Origin: a virus
Lineage: Duplodnaviria; Heunggongvirae; Uroviricota; Caudoviricetes
Virus record (IMG/VR): IMGVR_UViG_2778261534_000005
DNA length: 7,663 nucleotides
Strand: one strand, 5' to 3'
Part shown: positions 1 to 7,663 of the stretch, in pieces
Layout of the letters: every line of letters starts with the position of its first letter
Numbering within the stretch: the first letter of the stretch is position 1
Translations under genes and position numbers: made by a program
Notes under the pieces: model-generated
The model's input: the letters and a program-made list of their open reading frames with translations, nothing else
The model's database searches: none
What the model was told of the DNA's origin: nothing

Positions 1-30
1 CAAGCCATAGGGAGGTGTAGAGAAACCGTT

Positions 31-72
31 AAGGTGTCTGTACAGTTACATCTTAAACAACCATCACAGTGA
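31..72. repeat. Copy A of a degenerate dispersed repeat (aaggtg ... agttacatcttaa ... acagtga)
   Basis: The 13-mer agttacatcttaa at 44..56 recurs exactly at 319..331. Both copies are preceded by aaggtg (31..36 and 313..318) and followed by acagtga (66..72 and 331..337). Copy A carries short insertions relative to copy B. Confidence 0.55.
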
Positions 73-312
73 TGTCAAATAGTTCTTTTAAGAAGGGAGG
101 GTTCTTTCTCATGTATCACCCTCTCTTCCCGTTAAGTAAGCTACACAGACCTAGAGAACATGCTCTGTAACACCTTCACAAACATTGACTAAGGTCAACT
201 TCATAAACTCAGAGTTAAGTTACCTTGAAAGATTTTACCAAGAAACTACACAGGTGTTATTTAGTCTGACTGTGAAGGGATATTTAACGGGAGAGAAAGT
301 AACGATATACCG

Positions 313-337
313 AAGGTGAGTTACATCTTAACAGTGA
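313..337. repeat. Copy B of the same degenerate dispersed repeat
   Basis: Same motif order as copy A (aaggtg, agttacatcttaa, acagtga). Flanking sequence is also loosely alignable: gttaagtaag occurs at 131..140 and 451..460, and aagaag-gaggg-like runs follow both copies. Confidence 0.55.
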
Positions 338-411
338 CTGTAAGAGATACCTGAAAAGATACTTAACAGAACTACCAAGAAGAGAGGGAACGATAAGACC
401 AGAGGTAGTGA

Positions 412-424
412 CCTGTTAAACAGG
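412..424. repeat. 13-bp palindrome CCTGTT-A-AACAGG
   Basis: 6-bp arms are exact reverse complements around a single central base, inside the repeat-rich noncoding block. Confidence 0.5.
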
Positions 425-845
425 CTGTTTCAAAGTCTCTTAAGAAATCTGTTAAGTAAGGGCTATGTGACCAATATTACCATTTTGTCAATGCTTTTGT
501 CTTTGACCTAAATCAATAAAATGTATCGTTTGATATGCTTTTAAACAAAATGGCTAAAAAATCTTTTTAGAGGGGCGCTTCGCTTGTGTCACCAATATAT
601 TCTTCCCTGTCTAAGAGGGAAGTTACAGGGACATTTCAAAGCCCTCAATAGACAAACCGAGGAACACGGGAAACCGAGGGAAGAAAAATCTATTGTGATT
701 GCCTTGAACAAGGTCTGTAAAGGTCGTTTAAGGGGTCGGTTAAGAAAGGAGCTTCCCTCTCTGGGGTTATCGCTCTTCTCTCGCTTAGTGGATTGATTAG
801 GGGTTGTGTTATACAAGCCCAACTAAGAAGACCTCTGAAGTTTCC

Positions 846-1035
846 CTGTGAAGAAGCTGAACAGCTATTATATATGGCTAATTACAACTAATTGAAAAAT
901 AAGCATTTTTAGAAGTTACTGTTAAGGTTACAGAGTTGTCTGTGAAGAGACTTGTCAGTTCTCTATATATGGCTAATTACAACTTATTGAAAAATAAGAA
1001 CTTTTAGAAGTTACTGTCAGAGAGGTGAATACTTG
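846..1035. repeat. Imperfect tandem duplication of a ~94-bp unit (846..939 and 940..~1035) with a near-identical 54-bp core
   Basis: Both units start with ctgtgaaga. The cores at 869..922 and 964..1017 (tatatatggctaattacaac-N-attgaaaaataag...ttttagaagttactgt) differ at only about 3 positions; the flanks are more diverged. Confidence 0.8.
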
Positions 1036-1098
1036 ATAGATACAGCTTTCCGGTTCTGTCAAGCTATTTTTTCATAGATAGCACAAAATGCTAAAGAT

Positions 1099-1128
1099 AC
1101 CCCTATACCATCACGTACAGGGGGTTTT
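1099..1128 (-). terminator. Putative hairpin terminator for the leftward small-protein transcript, possibly bidirectional
   Basis: Stem 1100..1108 pairs with 1115..1123 (9 bp; one G-U wobble in the minus-strand RNA, which is an A-C mismatch on plus), loop 1109..1114. It sits 14 nt downstream of the minus-strand stop at 1138..1140 and is followed on the minus strand by a U-rich but interrupted tail; on the plus strand TTTT (1125..1128) follows. Confidence 0.35.
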
Positions 1129-1137
1129 GGAGGGATT

Positions 1138-1326
1138 TTAACGAGGGTCTGTATGGTTGTCTTCACGGCCTCTGTCCTTGAGGTCAAACGACCATTCACG
1201 ACCAAACAACCGAAACACGATAAACACCCTGACGATGAAATAGCGAAGTAGTAGGCCTGCAATCAGCCCAACACCTCCACCAGCCCATACATCAGGTGAC
1301 CCCAGTTCAGGAGGGAGATTTACCAT
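1138..1326 (-). CDS. Small membrane protein, 62 aa, one predicted transmembrane helix; function unknown
   Basis: ORF-track product MVNLPPELGSPDVWAGGGVGLIAGLLLRYFIVRVFIVFRLFG... has a hydrophobic core followed by a charged tail. GAAGG Shine-Dalgarno about 8 nt upstream of the ATG on the minus strand; extended -10 promoter ~110 nt upstream; hairpin after the stop. Local GC is higher than in the flanking noncoding DNA. Confidence 0.4.
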   Translation of the reverse strand: MVNLPPELGSPDVWAGGGVGLIAGLLLRYFIVRVFIVFRLFGREWSFDLKDRGREDNHTDPR

Positions 1327-1440
1327 TCAATGTACCTTCTGTGTGCAATGCAAAAAACATGTGACCATTCTCGATAGTTGATTCGGTTTATCGAATAAAC
1401 CTCATAGCCACGCTTCATATTTTCCCTCTCCCATAAACCC

Positions 1441-1470
1441 ATTATACCATAAATGTTAATAAATTGTTAA
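1441..1470 (-). promoter_or_regulatory. Leftward sigma70-type promoter with an extended -10 (TGnTATAAT)
   Basis: The minus strand reads TTAACA (plus 1470..1465), an 18-nt spacer, then TGGTATAAT (plus 1449..1441). The -10 hexamer is a perfect TATAAT with the TG extension. Confidence 0.5.
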
Positions 1471-1477
1471 AAAATAC

Positions 1478-1506
1478 TTGACATTAGTCTTTGAAACTGC
1501 TAGTAT
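1478..1506 (+). promoter_or_regulatory. Rightward sigma70-type promoter for the operon starting at 1559
   Basis: TTGACA at 1478..1483, 17-nt spacer, TAGTAT at 1501..1506, with an AT-rich tract upstream. It lies back-to-back with the leftward promoter; the two -35 elements are about 8 bp apart. Confidence 0.5.
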
Positions 1507-1558
1507 TGTATATATAGTTAACAGGAAATTAACAAACACTAAGAGGGTCAGAATATGA

Positions 1559-2113
1559 ATGAGAGACGCAGAATTTAGAGCGATGCTTCAGGCATCAAAA
1601 GAACGCAACAGACACAACGGTTACAGCTACACAAACAACCCCACCAGCTACGAAGTCCCAGCCTTTACCAAATCCGAACGTAAAAACATTGAAGCGGTCA
1701 TTCGTAGCATTACGCCACGAGACAGATTTATGCCAACTAGAAAGAGCACCCAGAACAGCATCAAAAATTATCTGGCTAGTTTTGACAGCTACGAGCAACT
1801 ACCAAGCAAGCTTGATGATATTTTCATTGGATTCTGTAGAGGTGAAGGTCACCCAAAATACAACAGAAAGCTATTTTATATTCTAAAGAATCTTGACGAA
1901 ATTAACACATGCAGCGTGACAAATCATCTTCAAAGACAATCAACCAGACTTAGCTACGAATTACCAACCGATGCCTATTGTGCATTGCTTGCTGTAATGT
2001 GTGCAAAGCTAATTGGTGTTGTTGAGCATCATGTTGCCGTTGGAAATATTGAGCCAATGGAAAACGAGCAACCAGATTTCGAGTTTGACCCGTATATTTT
2101 GGAGGAATTTTAA
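1559..2113 (+). CDS. Hypothetical protein, 184 aa, basic N-terminus and acidic C-terminus
   Basis: Long ORF directly downstream of the promoter; AAGAGGG ribosome-binding site at 1542..1548. First gene of a tightly packed chain. No family recognised by eye. Confidence 0.7.
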   Translation: MRDAEFRAMLQASKERNRHNGYSYTNNPTSYEVPAFTKSERKNIEAVIRSITPRDRFMPTRKSTQNSIKNYLASFDSYEQLPSKLDDIFIGFCRGEGHPKYNRKLFYILKNLDEINTCSVTNHLQRQSTRLSYELPTDAYCALLAVMCAKLIGVVEHHVAVGNIEPMENEQPDFEFDPYILEEF

Positions 2114-2116
2114 ATA

Positions 2117-2395
2117 ATGAATAAACACACATTAACCCGTATTTCAGAGGAAGCTTTTAACGAGCTTACCAGAATTAAACGAGCTACTAACTTGCCTCAT
2201 CAAACTGTTATGCAACTTGCAATCGCTAAAGAAGTCACTGAGTCGGATTTACTTAAATATCCAGTCTCTAAAGGTCGTAAACACATCCGAATTACTACGG
2301 ACGCTTTAGATACTTTGAAGGCACTTAACAGCTTTAAAATTGATATTGCCCGACTATTGAGCATCAAGATTCACAAATTATCTCAGGAGGTCTGA
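2117..2395 (+). CDS. Hypothetical small protein, 92 aa; possible ribbon-helix-helix-like DNA-binding protein
   Basis: GGAGG at 2101..2105; starts 3 nt after the upstream stop. The N-terminus (TLTRISEEAFNELTRIKRATNLPHQTVMQLAIAKEV) has a strand-helix-helix pattern reminiscent of CopG/Arc-type folds. The fold assignment is inference only. Confidence 0.65.
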   Translation: MNKHTLTRISEEAFNELTRIKRATNLPHQTVMQLAIAKEVTESDLLKYPVSKGRKHIRITTDALDTLKALNSFKIDIARLLSIKIHKLSQEV

Positions 2396-2397
2396 TT

Positions 2398-2670
2398 ATG
2401 AAGCAATGGCGAGATGATATTAAACGGTTCTTTGCAACTTACTTCATGATTAATTACGAAACAGGAATGCTTGAATGGATTGATGGCGGAGAGGTTAAGA
2501 CAAGAGATGATGCTTACGGTAATCCAATGATTCGTTATGGCACTCGTGATTATTATGTGAAGTATGTCATCTGGTTTTTGCATCATGAAGTTCAGGCAAC
2601 TAAAAAGATTATCTTCAGGGATGGTAATAAAAGAAATTGCCACCCAAACAATTTGCTACAGGAGGTTTAA
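2398..2670 (+). CDS. HNH_3-like (homing-endonuclease-related) small protein, 90 aa; canonical catalytic His not evident
   Basis: AGGAGG at 2385..2390 with 7-nt spacing; starts 2 nt after the upstream stop. The C-terminal IIFRDGNKRNCHPNNL (nt 2608..2655) matches the DGNK-N...NL core of HNH_3-type endonucleases, but Phe-Arg sits where His-Ile is usual. Confidence 0.7.
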   Translation: MKQWRDDIKRFFATYFMINYETGMLEWIDGGEVKTRDDAYGNPMIRYGTRDYYVKYVIWFLHHEVQATKKIIFRDGNKRNCHPNNLLQEV

Positions 2671-3056
2671 TGTATGACTTTTATAAACATCGTGACCATT
2701 TGGTAAGATTTGACGGTAAAGTCTGGAAAGACGTAACACAAACCAATAAGCCCAAGTTTACCCACCAGCAATTAGCCTCAAGATTTGATATCTGGACTGA
2801 AGCACAAAAAGATAATGGTGATTTCGAGTTTATCAGGGGTTTTGATTATGCTTACGAAGACGACCTTAAAGACGCCATTAAATTAATTGAGAATTTCAAC
2901 TCTATTAAAAGTGGTGACAAGCACAAAGCCAATGGTAACAGATACGATAAAGATTTAATCATTGATGCAATCACCAAAGGACAATCACAAAGTTATATTT
3001 CTGAGAAATACGGTTTATCACGCAGTCAATACTACAAGATTAAAGCGTCTGTGTAA
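2670..3056 (+). CDS. Putative DNA-binding protein, 128 aa, with a C-terminal recombinase/invertase-type helix-turn-helix
   Basis: The ATG at 2670 overlaps the upstream TAA (TAATG); GGAGG at 2661..2665. The ORF track starts this frame at a TTG at 2637, but the ATG with its Shine-Dalgarno is the more likely start. The C-terminal SQSYISEKYGLSRSQYYKIK resembles HTH_7/Hin-type helix-turn-helix motifs. Confidence 0.7.
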   Translation: MYDFYKHRDHLVRFDGKVWKDVTQTNKPKFTHQQLASRFDIWTEAQKDNGDFEFIRGFDYAYEDDLKDAIKLIENFNSIKSGDKHKANGNRYDKDLIIDAITKGQSQSYISEKYGLSRSQYYKIKASV

Positions 3057-3068
3057 GCCTGTGAGAAT

Positions 3069-3115
3069 GAGTGAGACTCAAAGATGAGCTACCCTATTAC
3101 TAAGGTGTCTCACTC
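3069..3115. promoter_or_regulatory. Perfect 9-bp inverted repeat GAGTGAGAC-N29-GTCTCACTC in an intergenic region
   Basis: Arms at 3069..3077 and 3107..3115 are exact reverse complements. A second small hairpin follows (gtaacc/ggttac, 3121..3137). No T-tract follows, so it is not a classical intrinsic terminator. Confidence 0.45.
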
Positions 3116-3193
3116 CCTCTGTAACCCGCATGGTTACTGGCCTCAGAATGGCTATTTTGGCAGATTTAAGATGTGTTTTAGAGGAATTTAAAA

Positions 3194-3517
3194 ATGAACA
3201 ATCACCCAATGCAAATTTTCGTTGATAACGACACCGCCATGATGATTCAGGCTTTCAGTGATGTAGGTGTTGGCATTGACTTTGATAAGTTGTTAGAGTT
3301 AATGGCTGCTAATGCAGAAAACATCTCTGACTTTATTCAGTCGGTGGAGTTTAACGAGCCTCGAATGATGCTACCAATTTCAGACAGCAACATGAAAAGA
3401 TTGGTTATCGAGCAAACGAACAAATACAGCGTTAGCCCTGAAAGATATCTCAAGGCAGCTATAGCAATTTTGTACGCTGACAATATTTTGGTGACGGATT
3501 CCGTGAGGGTTCACTAA
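3194..3517 (+). CDS. Hypothetical protein, 107 aa
   Basis: AGAGGA ribosome-binding site at 3179..3184, 9 nt before the ATG. No family recognised. Confidence 0.65.
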   Translation: MNNHPMQIFVDNDTAMMIQAFSDVGVGIDFDKLLELMAANAENISDFIQSVEFNEPRMMLPISDSNMKRLVIEQTNKYSVSPERYLKAAIAILYADNILVTDSVRVH

Positions 3518-3594
3518 TGACGTTAATTGTATTATGGACGCTGTTAGGCTTATTTGTTGGCTGCATTATTAACAATGCGGTAAATAAGAATTGA
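3517..3594 (+). CDS. Small hydrophobic peptide, 25 aa (MTLIVLWTLLGLFVGCIINNAVNKN), possible single-pass membrane peptide
   Basis: Absent from the ORF track (too short). The ATG at 3517 overlaps the upstream TAA (TAATG); GAGGG at 3505..3509 with 7-nt spacing. Hydrophobic core followed by a polar basic tail. Confidence 0.4.
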   Translation: MTLIVLWTLLGLFVGCIINNAVNKN

Positions 3595-3618
3595 TGTTAC
3601 CAATCTGTTAAAAAGCTG

Positions 3619-3647
3619 TTGACAAATAACCTTAAGCATGACATAAT
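3619..3647 (+). promoter_or_regulatory. Sigma70-type promoter (TTGACA-17-CATAAT)
   Basis: Perfect -35 TTGACA at 3619..3624, 17-nt spacer, CATAAT at 3642..3647. Confidence 0.5.
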
Positions 3648-3656
3648 TTTAATTAT

Positions 3657-3684
3657 AGAGAGAATTGCTCTCTTATTTTTTTTT
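3657..3684 (+). terminator. Hairpin plus T-tract (intrinsic-terminator-like) just downstream of the promoter
   Basis: agagag (3657..3662) pairs with ctctct (3668..3673), loop aattg, followed by tattttttttt (3674..3684). Confidence 0.5.
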
Positions 3685-3817
3685 CAACAATTCCATCTAC
3701 ATCTAGGGATAGTTATTCTGAAAGGTGCAATGCTTTTCGCTACATGGCCTCTTATATAACCTGAGAGGTCATCTCGAAAAGTCTTTGTTCATTCATTATT
3801 GAATCCTTTACAGCTTT

Positions 3818-3856
3818 GCCCTAACTCATGATTAGGGCGTTTCTTTAAGAGTTTTT
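3818..3856 (+). terminator. Hairpin plus U-rich tail (terminator-like)
   Basis: gccctaa (3818..3824) pairs with ttagggc (3832..3838), 7-nt loop, then gtttctttaagagttttt. Confidence 0.4.
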
Positions 3857-3915
3857 AAACAGAACTTTTAAAGAAAGTTTTTCCTGAAACTTCGTTAACG
3901 TTAAAGCAAACCTTC

Positions 3916-3960
3916 AAAGCCCTTCACAGATGAGGATGAACCTATGTTTAGGGCTTTTTT
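3916..3960 (+). terminator. Hairpin with a large loop plus T-tract (terminator-like)
   Basis: aaagccct (3916..3923) pairs with agggcttt (3950..3957) around a 26-nt loop; the T run extends to 3960. Confidence 0.35.
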
Positions 3961-4070
3961 CAGCTTTTAAAAAGCATACTTGGCAAACGCCTTTTAAGCC
4001 TCTTCTAAGTTCGAGGATGTCAGGTGTGCTTTTTAAAAACTGAATATTACTTAGAAGAGGAAATGAAATA

Positions 4071-7373: not shown

Positions 7374-7663
<290 letters not shown>

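Follow-up and report, generated by a model that had tools for sequence, protein, structure and literature searches.

The DNA considered here is a stretch of 7,663 nt from a tailed-virus record of IMG/VR (IMGVR_UViG_2778261534_000005, Caudoviricetes), referred to below as the window, in which positions 1100-1534 hold two back-to-back promoters (P_L, leftward, and P_R, rightward) and a compact leftward unit with an open reading frame (ORF) for a small membrane protein. The explanation that we tentatively regard as the best overall is that this segment is the control centre, together with the single leftward gene, of a mosaic genomic island carried by Escherichia coli and related bacteria, comprising an operator switch and a membrane protein that would modulate phage infection. 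Within this explanation, the small gene and both promoters are in all likelihood real. The initial annotation of this DNA, which was made from its letters alone, had described the anatomy well, and the two divergent promoters and the compact leftward unit stand; its reading of the rightward genes as a phage early operon and of repeats in the leader as a conserved regulatory element does not (the repeats belong to an optional insert, as detailed below).

Judged by its pattern of variation, the leftward ORF (1138..1326, minus strand) is a protein-coding gene under purifying selection. It is intact in all of the 85 loci that hold it whole, with 58, 60, 61 or 62 codons, and every insertion or deletion among them is in frame. 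Across 70 distinct coding sequences the variable sites are distributed 36/24/50 over the three codon positions, and the median pairwise ratio of nonsynonymous to synonymous substitution rates (dN/dS) is 0.19 (2067 pairs, with a median dS of 0.39). Thus the frame is maintained and the amino acids are under purifying selection, as is characteristic of protein-coding sequences. The initial annotation had named the synonymous sites as the place where a coding interpretation might fail, and the pattern found there (intact frames throughout, predominance of third-position variation and low dN/dS) is that of a coding gene. The 62-codon frame and its one hydrophobic helix, the latter as a prediction, were likewise found where they had been placed, and the proposed Shine-Dalgarno sequence GAAGG does lie 8 nt ahead of the ATG at 1326. 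Automated annotation has been inconsistent in this respect, with the NCBI pipeline calling the small gene in some genomes and skipping it in several others.

These skipped annotations could be taken as support for an untranslated ORF, with the leftward transcript acting as a noncoding or regulatory RNA, and the same can be said of the unusual nucleotide-level conservation of the leader and of the first 54 nt of the ORF. However, the coding pattern above stands against this reading, as do the retention of a Shine-Dalgarno sequence in three leader variants and the absence of any Rfam match, either for the window or for a relative with a long leader, and we consider its probability to be close to negligible. 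No tRNA was found in the window. Within the gene, synonymous change is nearly absent from codons 1-18 (1273-1326) and is normal in codons 19-43, a pattern that points to an additional constraint at the nucleotide level over the start of the gene.

The product is predicted to be a single-pass protein of the inner membrane, with its N terminus outside and its C terminus inside. Structure prediction with AlphaFold from the family alignment gives a single helix over residues 11-50, confident over residues 20-40, and the 19-residue hydropathy peak (2.2) covers residues 19-37. The predicted orientation follows from the positive-inside rule, given an acidic N terminus (net charge -2 over the first 13 residues) and an arginine-rich C-terminal side, the core itself carrying +3 (R28, R33 and R39). 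There are 20 invariant columns in the family, mostly between residues 20 and 50, and they include R28, Y29, R33, W45 and a D48-L49-K50 motif; two of these arginines, R28 and R33, lie within the hydrophobic core, which is followed by GREWSFDLKD and a charged tail. Residues 26-45 form an amphipathic stretch.

This is a previously undescribed family of one-helix membrane proteins. A profile search through 1.84 billion protein representatives returned only the family itself and no relatives beyond this element; comparison with Pfam, PHROGs, NCBIfam, PADLOC and the sequences of the PDB gave nothing usable, and tblastn against 50,697 phage records gave no match. The 79 clusters of the family take their names from E. 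coli, Citrobacter and Kluyvera only; Salmonella carries the gene as well. It is, at the same time, the least divergent protein of the island, with at least 64% identity among its members, whereas the allelic types of the neighbouring genes go down to 25-45%. Such constancy within a mosaic island argues for a conserved partner. The small protein was not seen to co-vary with the tape measure gene or with any other gene of the island (largest absolute Spearman r, 0.28).

In a scan with the consensus of sigma-70 promoters, P_L reads TTAACA-18-TGgTATAAT (1470..1441, minus strand; 11/12 with an extended -10) and P_R reads TTGACA-17-TGcTAGTAT (10/12 with TG), and the two -35 hexamers are separated by 7 bp. 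Both belong to the three best matches of the window and both have the features of extended -10 promoters (TG, a -10 close to TATAAT and appropriate spacing to a -35), with transcription probably starting near 1434 on the minus strand for P_L and near 1513 for P_R. Promoter-like matches are not in excess overall, the window having 22 where 18.2 are expected, so that a match to the consensus is no proof in itself and the case is carried by conservation. For this purpose 84 related control regions were compared, from E. coli genomes, metagenome contigs, E. albertii, Citrobacter and Salmonella. In P_L the -10 TATAAT and the 18-nt spacer are kept in every locus, while the -35 is TTAACA in 76 and GTAACA in 8; in P_R the -35 TTGACA and the TG are kept in every locus, while the -10 is TAGTAT in 68 and TAAGAT, TAGGAT, TAATAT or TAATGT in the others. 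The DNA around the pair diverges by 10-25% among the same relatives. Both promoters had been proposed initially, the leftward one as an extended -10 element and the rightward one as TTGACA-17-TAGTAT, and both are present exactly as proposed. An alternative promoter (TTGAAA-16-TATAGT, 1491-1518, plus strand) overlaps P_R.

The promoter pair is embedded in a second conserved pattern, a tandem motif of the form TGTTA-N6-TGTTA, of which the window contains exactly three perfect copies (O1, O2 and O3; Table 1) as compared with about 0.015 expected from base counting. O1 is conserved in 84 of 84 loci, O2 in 82 of 84 and O3 in 65 of the 66 loci that reach that far, with TGTTA cores that are invariant and spacers that vary. 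O1 contributes the -35 of P_L and part of its spacer, and a protein bound there would have to block P_L for this reason. The third copy lies next to another promoter, at 3619-3647 on the plus strand (TTGACA-17-CATAAT with TG; 11/12), and the distance between O3 and the -35 of this promoter is the same as that between O1 and the -35 of P_R, namely 8 nt; more generally, the sequences upstream of these two promoters are closely alike. Because O1 and O3 stand at this equal upstream distance and O2 lies just downstream of the predicted start of P_R, one DNA-binding protein would probably co-regulate P_L, P_R and the 3619 promoter. Taken together, the promoter pair is on balance likely to be an operator-controlled switch. 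The tandem motif had not been recorded in the initial annotation; it ties the promoter pair both to the third promoter and to phages of the Felix O1 type. As to the third promoter itself, its predicted start is almost directly followed by a hairpin with nine T (3657-3673), with a further terminator at 3817-3839, both ahead of the tail genes, a layout that would need antitermination or would otherwise give a very short RNA.

Two candidates can be named for the regulator, one encoded by the island (a tandem ribbon-helix-helix protein) and one by the phage (a protein binding the repeats of phage DNA), and with either of them the expression of the membrane protein would be coupled to the state of the island operon. 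The first candidate is the 92-amino-acid product of the second rightward gene, whose best structural matches are TraY, DndE and AvtR (E of about 0.03, TM score 0.5-0.6), the sequence match being below threshold; its predicted fold makes it a candidate binder of O1, O2 and O3. It occurs in two allelic types, which do not differ in the residues of either strand predicted to contact DNA. No homolog of this protein was found in phage garuso.

Table 1. Features of the control region and of adjoining parts of the island (window coordinates; operator and RNA elements are predictions)
Feature	Position	Strand	Remarks
P_L, extended -10 (TGGTATAAT)	1441..1449	-	plus strand reads attatacca; TATAAT in 84/84 related loci
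P_L, -35 (TTAACA)	1465..1470	-	18-nt spacer; doubles as inner half-site of operator-like O1
P_R	1478..1506	+	TTGACA 1478-1483, 17-nt spacer, TG, TAGTAT 1501-1506
O1, operator-like (TGTTAATAAATTGTTA)	1454..1469	+	about -35 to -20 of P_L; about -59 to -44 from the P_R start
O2, operator-like	1519..1534	-	inverted relative to O1; about +6 to +21 of P_R
O3, operator-like	3595..3610	+	8 nt upstream of the -35 of the promoter at 3619-3647
Gene for the 62-amino-acid single-pass membrane protein (orphan family)	1138..1326	-	conservation, dN/dS, predicted helix
Leader of the leftward mRNA	1327..1434	-	108 nt, putative extent
Leader, G-rich 5' element	1432..1423	-	
Leader, hairpin arms	1411..1404 and 1368..1361	-	
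Leader, optional insert	~1403..1369	-	in the hairpin loop
Leader, Shine-Dalgarno GAAGG	1339..1335	-	
3' untranslated C/U-rich element	1137..1125	-	
Terminator hairpin	1123..1100	-	
Rightward gene 1	1559..2113	+	184 amino acids, no recognisable family
Rightward gene 2, tandem ribbon-helix-helix protein	2117..2395	+	92 amino acids; AlphaFold pLDDT 91, strand-helix-helix twice

The link to phages is provided by garuso, a phage of the Felix O1 type, which contains 15 copies of the tandem motif as compared with a mean of 0.5 in shuffled sequence, and 13 of these lie within 49.4-50.6 kb, a noncoding region between two convergent blocks of genes. This repeat-rich region is conserved, and left unannotated, in 256 phage records, and it is not discussed in the Felix O1 genome paper. 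Window 363-435 matches the garuso repeat region at 78% identity (E = 4e-7), which is the best match that window 1-1560 has anywhere in this phage; the noncoding segment common to the island and the phage amounts to 76 nt. The surrounding DNA (window 1-1100) is itself peculiar, with about 1.1 kb that are conserved at 75-90% identity across more than 80 loci, hold no convincing ORF and contain eight copies of C-N-GTTAAG as well as a 54-nt direct repeat (869-922 and 964-1017). This DNA may have been borrowed as an origin or as a site for packaging, and many relatives have a Dam methylase gene inserted in it at about 592/623.

The leader of the leftward transcript is modular, and for this reason the distance from the -10 to the ATG ranges from 92 to 247 nt across loci. 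Conservation is found in a G-rich 5' element (GGGAGAGGGA or a variant of it), an 8-bp hairpin, the segment UUGCAUUGCACACAG and the Shine-Dalgarno sequence, which occurs in three leader variants and contexts, all of them retaining AAGG or AGGA. Substitutions in the hairpin arms (GUGGCUAU/AUGGUCAC) all keep the pairing (G-U to G-C or A-U), with zero double compensatory changes and with a stem that is shortened in one lineage; its two G-U pairs make the hairpin better on the mRNA strand than on the opposite one. The nested repeats tcgata/tatcga that had been noticed in a leader of about 110 nt do exist at 1371..1394, but they are part of an optional insert in the hairpin loop which many relatives lack, and they were rejected as a conserved regulatory element; a 37-nt piece of this insert is found at other places in E. 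coli genomes too. A further structured insert of about 100 nt precedes the Shine-Dalgarno sequence in about half of the relatives. The possibility that this is a dispersed mobile repeat was dismissed, as each genome has a single copy and the insert is confined to these islands. Similarly, an ATG in the leader opens a frame of 32 codons in the window, ending 4 nt beyond the main ATG, and a conserved upstream ORF was discarded because this ATG is ATA in many relatives and the inserts shift the frame.

At the other end of the unit, the hairpin reported right after the stop codon was recovered as CCCCTGTACGTGATGGTATAGGGG, beginning 14 nt past the stop. Because TTTTGGAGGGATTTT comes after it on the plus strand, the hairpin is probably a two-way terminator that would also end rightward transcription arriving from the left. 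The hairpin is conserved as a feature and not as a sequence: it is present in every relative, in four forms, namely the type found in the window, its exact reverse complement, a form with a loop insert and, in the most divergent group, an unrelated hairpin. The in-place inversion seen in several loci is unusual and fits a terminator working both ways. By the position of these elements, the leftward transcript would be self-contained, running from about 1434 to about 1095 (about 335 nt).

A small hydrophobic protein, a long 5' leader and an adjoining divergent promoter are also the layout of tisB/istR-1, which raises the question of whether the unit is a type I toxin locus, that is, whether a membrane-damaging 62-amino-acid protein is silenced at the RNA level and stabilises the island or aborts infection. 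Two further observations lend themselves to this reading: the G-rich 5' element is able to pair with UCUCCCUCC (codons 3-6) or with the C/U-rich stretch after the stop in nearly all of 72 transcript variants, and codons 1-18 are nearly devoid of synonymous change, as described above. Nevertheless, there is no antisense promoter over the unit in the window, and one proposed in the long-leader insert of relatives was rejected, since it is not conserved and its -10 is TATGAG in most of them. The divergent transcript is an operon mRNA, and its complementarity to the mRNA of the small gene reaches only 10/12 (family D18). The stability of the leader does not exceed that of shuffled sequence (z of about 0), and the consensus fold of the leader keeps one 7-bp hairpin and leaves the Shine-Dalgarno sequence and the AUG unpaired. 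A fold-back of the 5' end onto the 3' end, as in hok, was given low weight, the pairing being possible but accompanied by neither covariation nor excess stability. Finally, most type I toxins are smaller and look less specific than this protein, which has 58-62 amino acids and a charged tail that is strongly conserved. We therefore regard this reading as improbable, and the toxic peptide that had been suggested initially is not supported, at least as far as toxins of this kind are concerned, given that the antisense partner which defines them was looked for and not found.

Window 1-4000 was compared with phage records, plasmids and complete E. coli genomes. It gave no match in the 50,697 phage records or in plasmids, but it matched 542 of 5426 complete E. 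coli genomes (about 10%); among viral contigs, only 4 matches were found, most of which, to judge by their record names, would come from isolate genomes. In annotated genomes the element is an island of 10-12 kb with serine recombinases, inserted in yecE or next to wrbA, and it is found in E. coli, Salmonella (also in yecE), Citrobacter and E. albertii. Its left end holds a small serine recombinase or variable cargo (a Dam methylase or an AP2-type gene), followed by at least about 1 kb of noncoding DNA and by the small gene. The rightward operon then encodes a 184-amino-acid protein, the 92-amino-acid protein, an HNH protein and small proteins of no assigned family, and beyond the second promoter there follow proteins of 236 and 67 amino acids, a tape measure protein, a Dit-like baseplate protein and a large serine recombinase. 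In the window, the segment 2398-3056 comprises a 90-amino-acid HNH protein and an overlapping 139-amino-acid ORF with a weak C-terminal helix-turn-helix match, which could be a packaging-related pair. Neither annotated relatives nor family scans revealed replication, capsid, large terminase or lysis genes (endolysin, spanin) in the island. The rightward unit, which had been taken for a phage early operon, is the operon of this small serine-recombinase island devoid of genes for replication, capsid or lysis.

Mosaicism is very marked in the island: the tape measure gene, like every gene of the rightward operon, occurs in 2-4 allelic types (25-98% amino acid identity) that assort independently, whereas the control region and the small gene are common to all loci. 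Its tape measure protein matches tape measure families and has 34% amino acid identity to that of garuso, and the gene after it has 85-92% identity to its garuso counterpart. The last 206 bases of the window (7458-7663) are 96-97% identical to more than 200 genomes of Felix O1-type phages, far above the rest of the window, which suggests a recent exchange between the island and these phages.

From these properties, the island is likely a satellite (a parasite) or an antagonist of Felix O1-type phages. Like known satellites, it has a recombinase of its own and lacks genes for autonomous replication, capsid and lysis, and it shows specific ties to a helper phage, namely the tape measure gene and the gene next to it (up to 97% nucleotide identity), the TGTTA repeats and the 76-nt segment. 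Known groups of satellites are recognised by markers such as psu, sid, delta and alpha in P4, a tyrosine integrase, alpA and pri-rep in PICI, capsid genes in cfPICI and a characteristic gene set in PLE. None of these P4-like, PICI, cfPICI or PLE markers was found in Pfam, PHROG and NCBIfam scans of the window proteins or in annotated relatives, and our literature search came across neither an account of this island nor one of a satellite associated with Felix O1.

As for the protein itself, the reading that we put forward, while considering it rather doubtful, is that it would act at the inner membrane on a conserved component of the host or of the helper phage and thereby modulate or exclude phage infection, a protective role in the maintenance state being the favoured version. 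Exclusion had also been one of the three functions suggested initially. It is suggested by the strict tie of the family to a phage-related island, by the position of the gene at the switch and by its conservation while the genes that match phages vary. Several points weigh against this reading and against the wider explanation. The transcription starts, the activity of the terminator and all of the regulation have been deduced from sequence, and this sequence is compatible both with a P_L that is on at rest and with one that fires only after induction. Since P_R and the 3619 promoter are near consensus, the site upstream of each need not be an activator site. The searches described above linked the protein to no known exclusion family, with no homology to superinfection exclusion in PHROGs, Pfam, NCBIfam, PADLOC, the tblastn comparison with phages or the profile search. 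In addition, the type of the small protein does not follow the type of the tape measure protein, which removes one attractive route to exclusion, and the satellite status of the island is itself a proposal.

The question of timing bears on a different role, that of an infection-phase satellite effector, made after infection by the helper and altering lysis timing or the state of the membrane in the manner of LidI, or else serving as a partner of a holin or antiholin. There is a precedent in PLE, whose LidI proteins are transmembrane proteins without homologs (PMC7182436). Were the island repressed at rest by way of O1 and O2, induction would set off P_L and P_R at the same time; in addition, phages of the Felix O1 type do carry rIIA and rIIB. 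On the other hand, the sequence does not fix the timing of expression, the profile search gave no relatives outside the family and the island lacks endolysin and spanin, so that we give this role only a small chance. A holin-like function, which had been suggested initially, could appeal to the general build of the product, a small protein with a transmembrane segment and a charged C terminus; however, no holin family of Pfam or PHROGs was matched and, because no lysis partners are present in the island, such a function is unlikely.

A host-directed role has similarly little weight in our assessment. More specifically, the protein could be a small membrane regulator that binds a conserved host protein of the inner membrane (such as a protease, a sensor kinase or a transporter) and alters host physiology, with no direct part in conflict with phages. 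The constancy of the protein in a very mosaic island, its lack of co-variation with any island module and the amphipathic stretch over residues 26-45 agree with this, and the invariant residues suggest a specific protein contact; but a family that is confined to this island, and a gene that sits at the island's control switch, are not what this role would lead one to expect.

If the switch, the membrane protein and the phage repeats are read jointly, the segment would be a switch that senses the helper, in a new family of satellites whose helpers are virulent phages of the Felix O1 type, a combination that we consider unlikely to hold in its entirety. In this combination, a phage protein would bind the 11-bp-phased TGTTA repeats of the phage and, after infection, also O1, O2 and O3 in the island, thus shutting off the membrane protein of the resting state and turning on the hijacking operon and the promoter of the tail genes. 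The phage repeats may then be an origin or a packaging region, and the noncoding DNA of window 1-1100, which has motifs and the 76-nt segment in common with the phage region, would let the helper replicate or package the island, with the 62-amino-acid protein as the resting-state guard of the island at the inner membrane.

Small membrane proteins are often missed by annotation, and the present one is the most conserved protein of an island found in about one tenth of complete E. coli genomes. Taken alone, the family is of modest interest; its interest comes from a context that points to an undescribed island associated with Felix O1-type phages, a group with wide use in typing, biocontrol and therapy. 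Should the island indeed be a satellite or a defence element against them, the switch and the membrane protein would offer handles on the sensing of infection and on the efficacy of these phages.

Among known systems, exclusion morons such as gp15 of HK97 are close in spirit to the favoured role, gp15 being reportedly a small inner-membrane protein encoded by a prophage as a self-contained cassette with its own promoter and terminator. A small inner-membrane protein carried by a mobile element as its own cassette is common to both (gp15 was compared from its general description and not by alignment), but the gene described here is situated at a regulatory switch and not in a tail region, and there is no match in sequence or family. 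Moreover, exclusion is the trait of these morons and is only proposed for the present protein, whose type does not follow the tape measure type of its island. The type I toxin loci (tisB/istR-1, zorO/orzO, shoB/ohsC and hok/sok) combine a small hydrophobic ORF with a long leader, and here the long leader, the back-to-back promoters and the potential of the 5' end to pair with either the ORF start or the 3' end are reminiscent of them; the differences are that the divergent transcript is an operon mRNA, that there is no antisense RNA gene and that no signal of covariation or stability accompanies the pairing.

A further comparison is offered by LidI of the Vibrio cholerae PLE, transmembrane proteins of 66 or 121 amino acids that lack homologs and had initially escaped annotation (PMC7182436). 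PLE is a satellite of a lytic myovirus, has a large serine recombinase and produces LidI only on infection (PMC7182436). The likeness consists in a small orphan transmembrane protein, missed by annotation, on an element with a large serine recombinase. The host and the helper are different, however; descriptions of LidI do not place it at a pair of divergent promoters, and the profile search detected no homology, LidI itself not having been aligned.

With regard to the switch, divergent promoters that share operators, so that one bound protein sets both, are known from PRM/PR of lambda and from stl/str of SaPI. The control region described here resembles them in its back-to-back promoters with shared sites that are predicted to be operators. 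It differs from them in that the leftward product is a membrane protein and not a DNA-binding repressor, and in that the sites are direct, 11-bp-phased TGTTA repeats which also occur in a noncoding region of the helper-type phage. Phased repeats are the targets of tandem ribbon-helix-helix proteins such as TraY of F, AvtR and DndE, and the same doubled strand-helix-helix fold is predicted for the 92-amino-acid protein of the island, which would, by this analogy, bind O1, O2 and O3.

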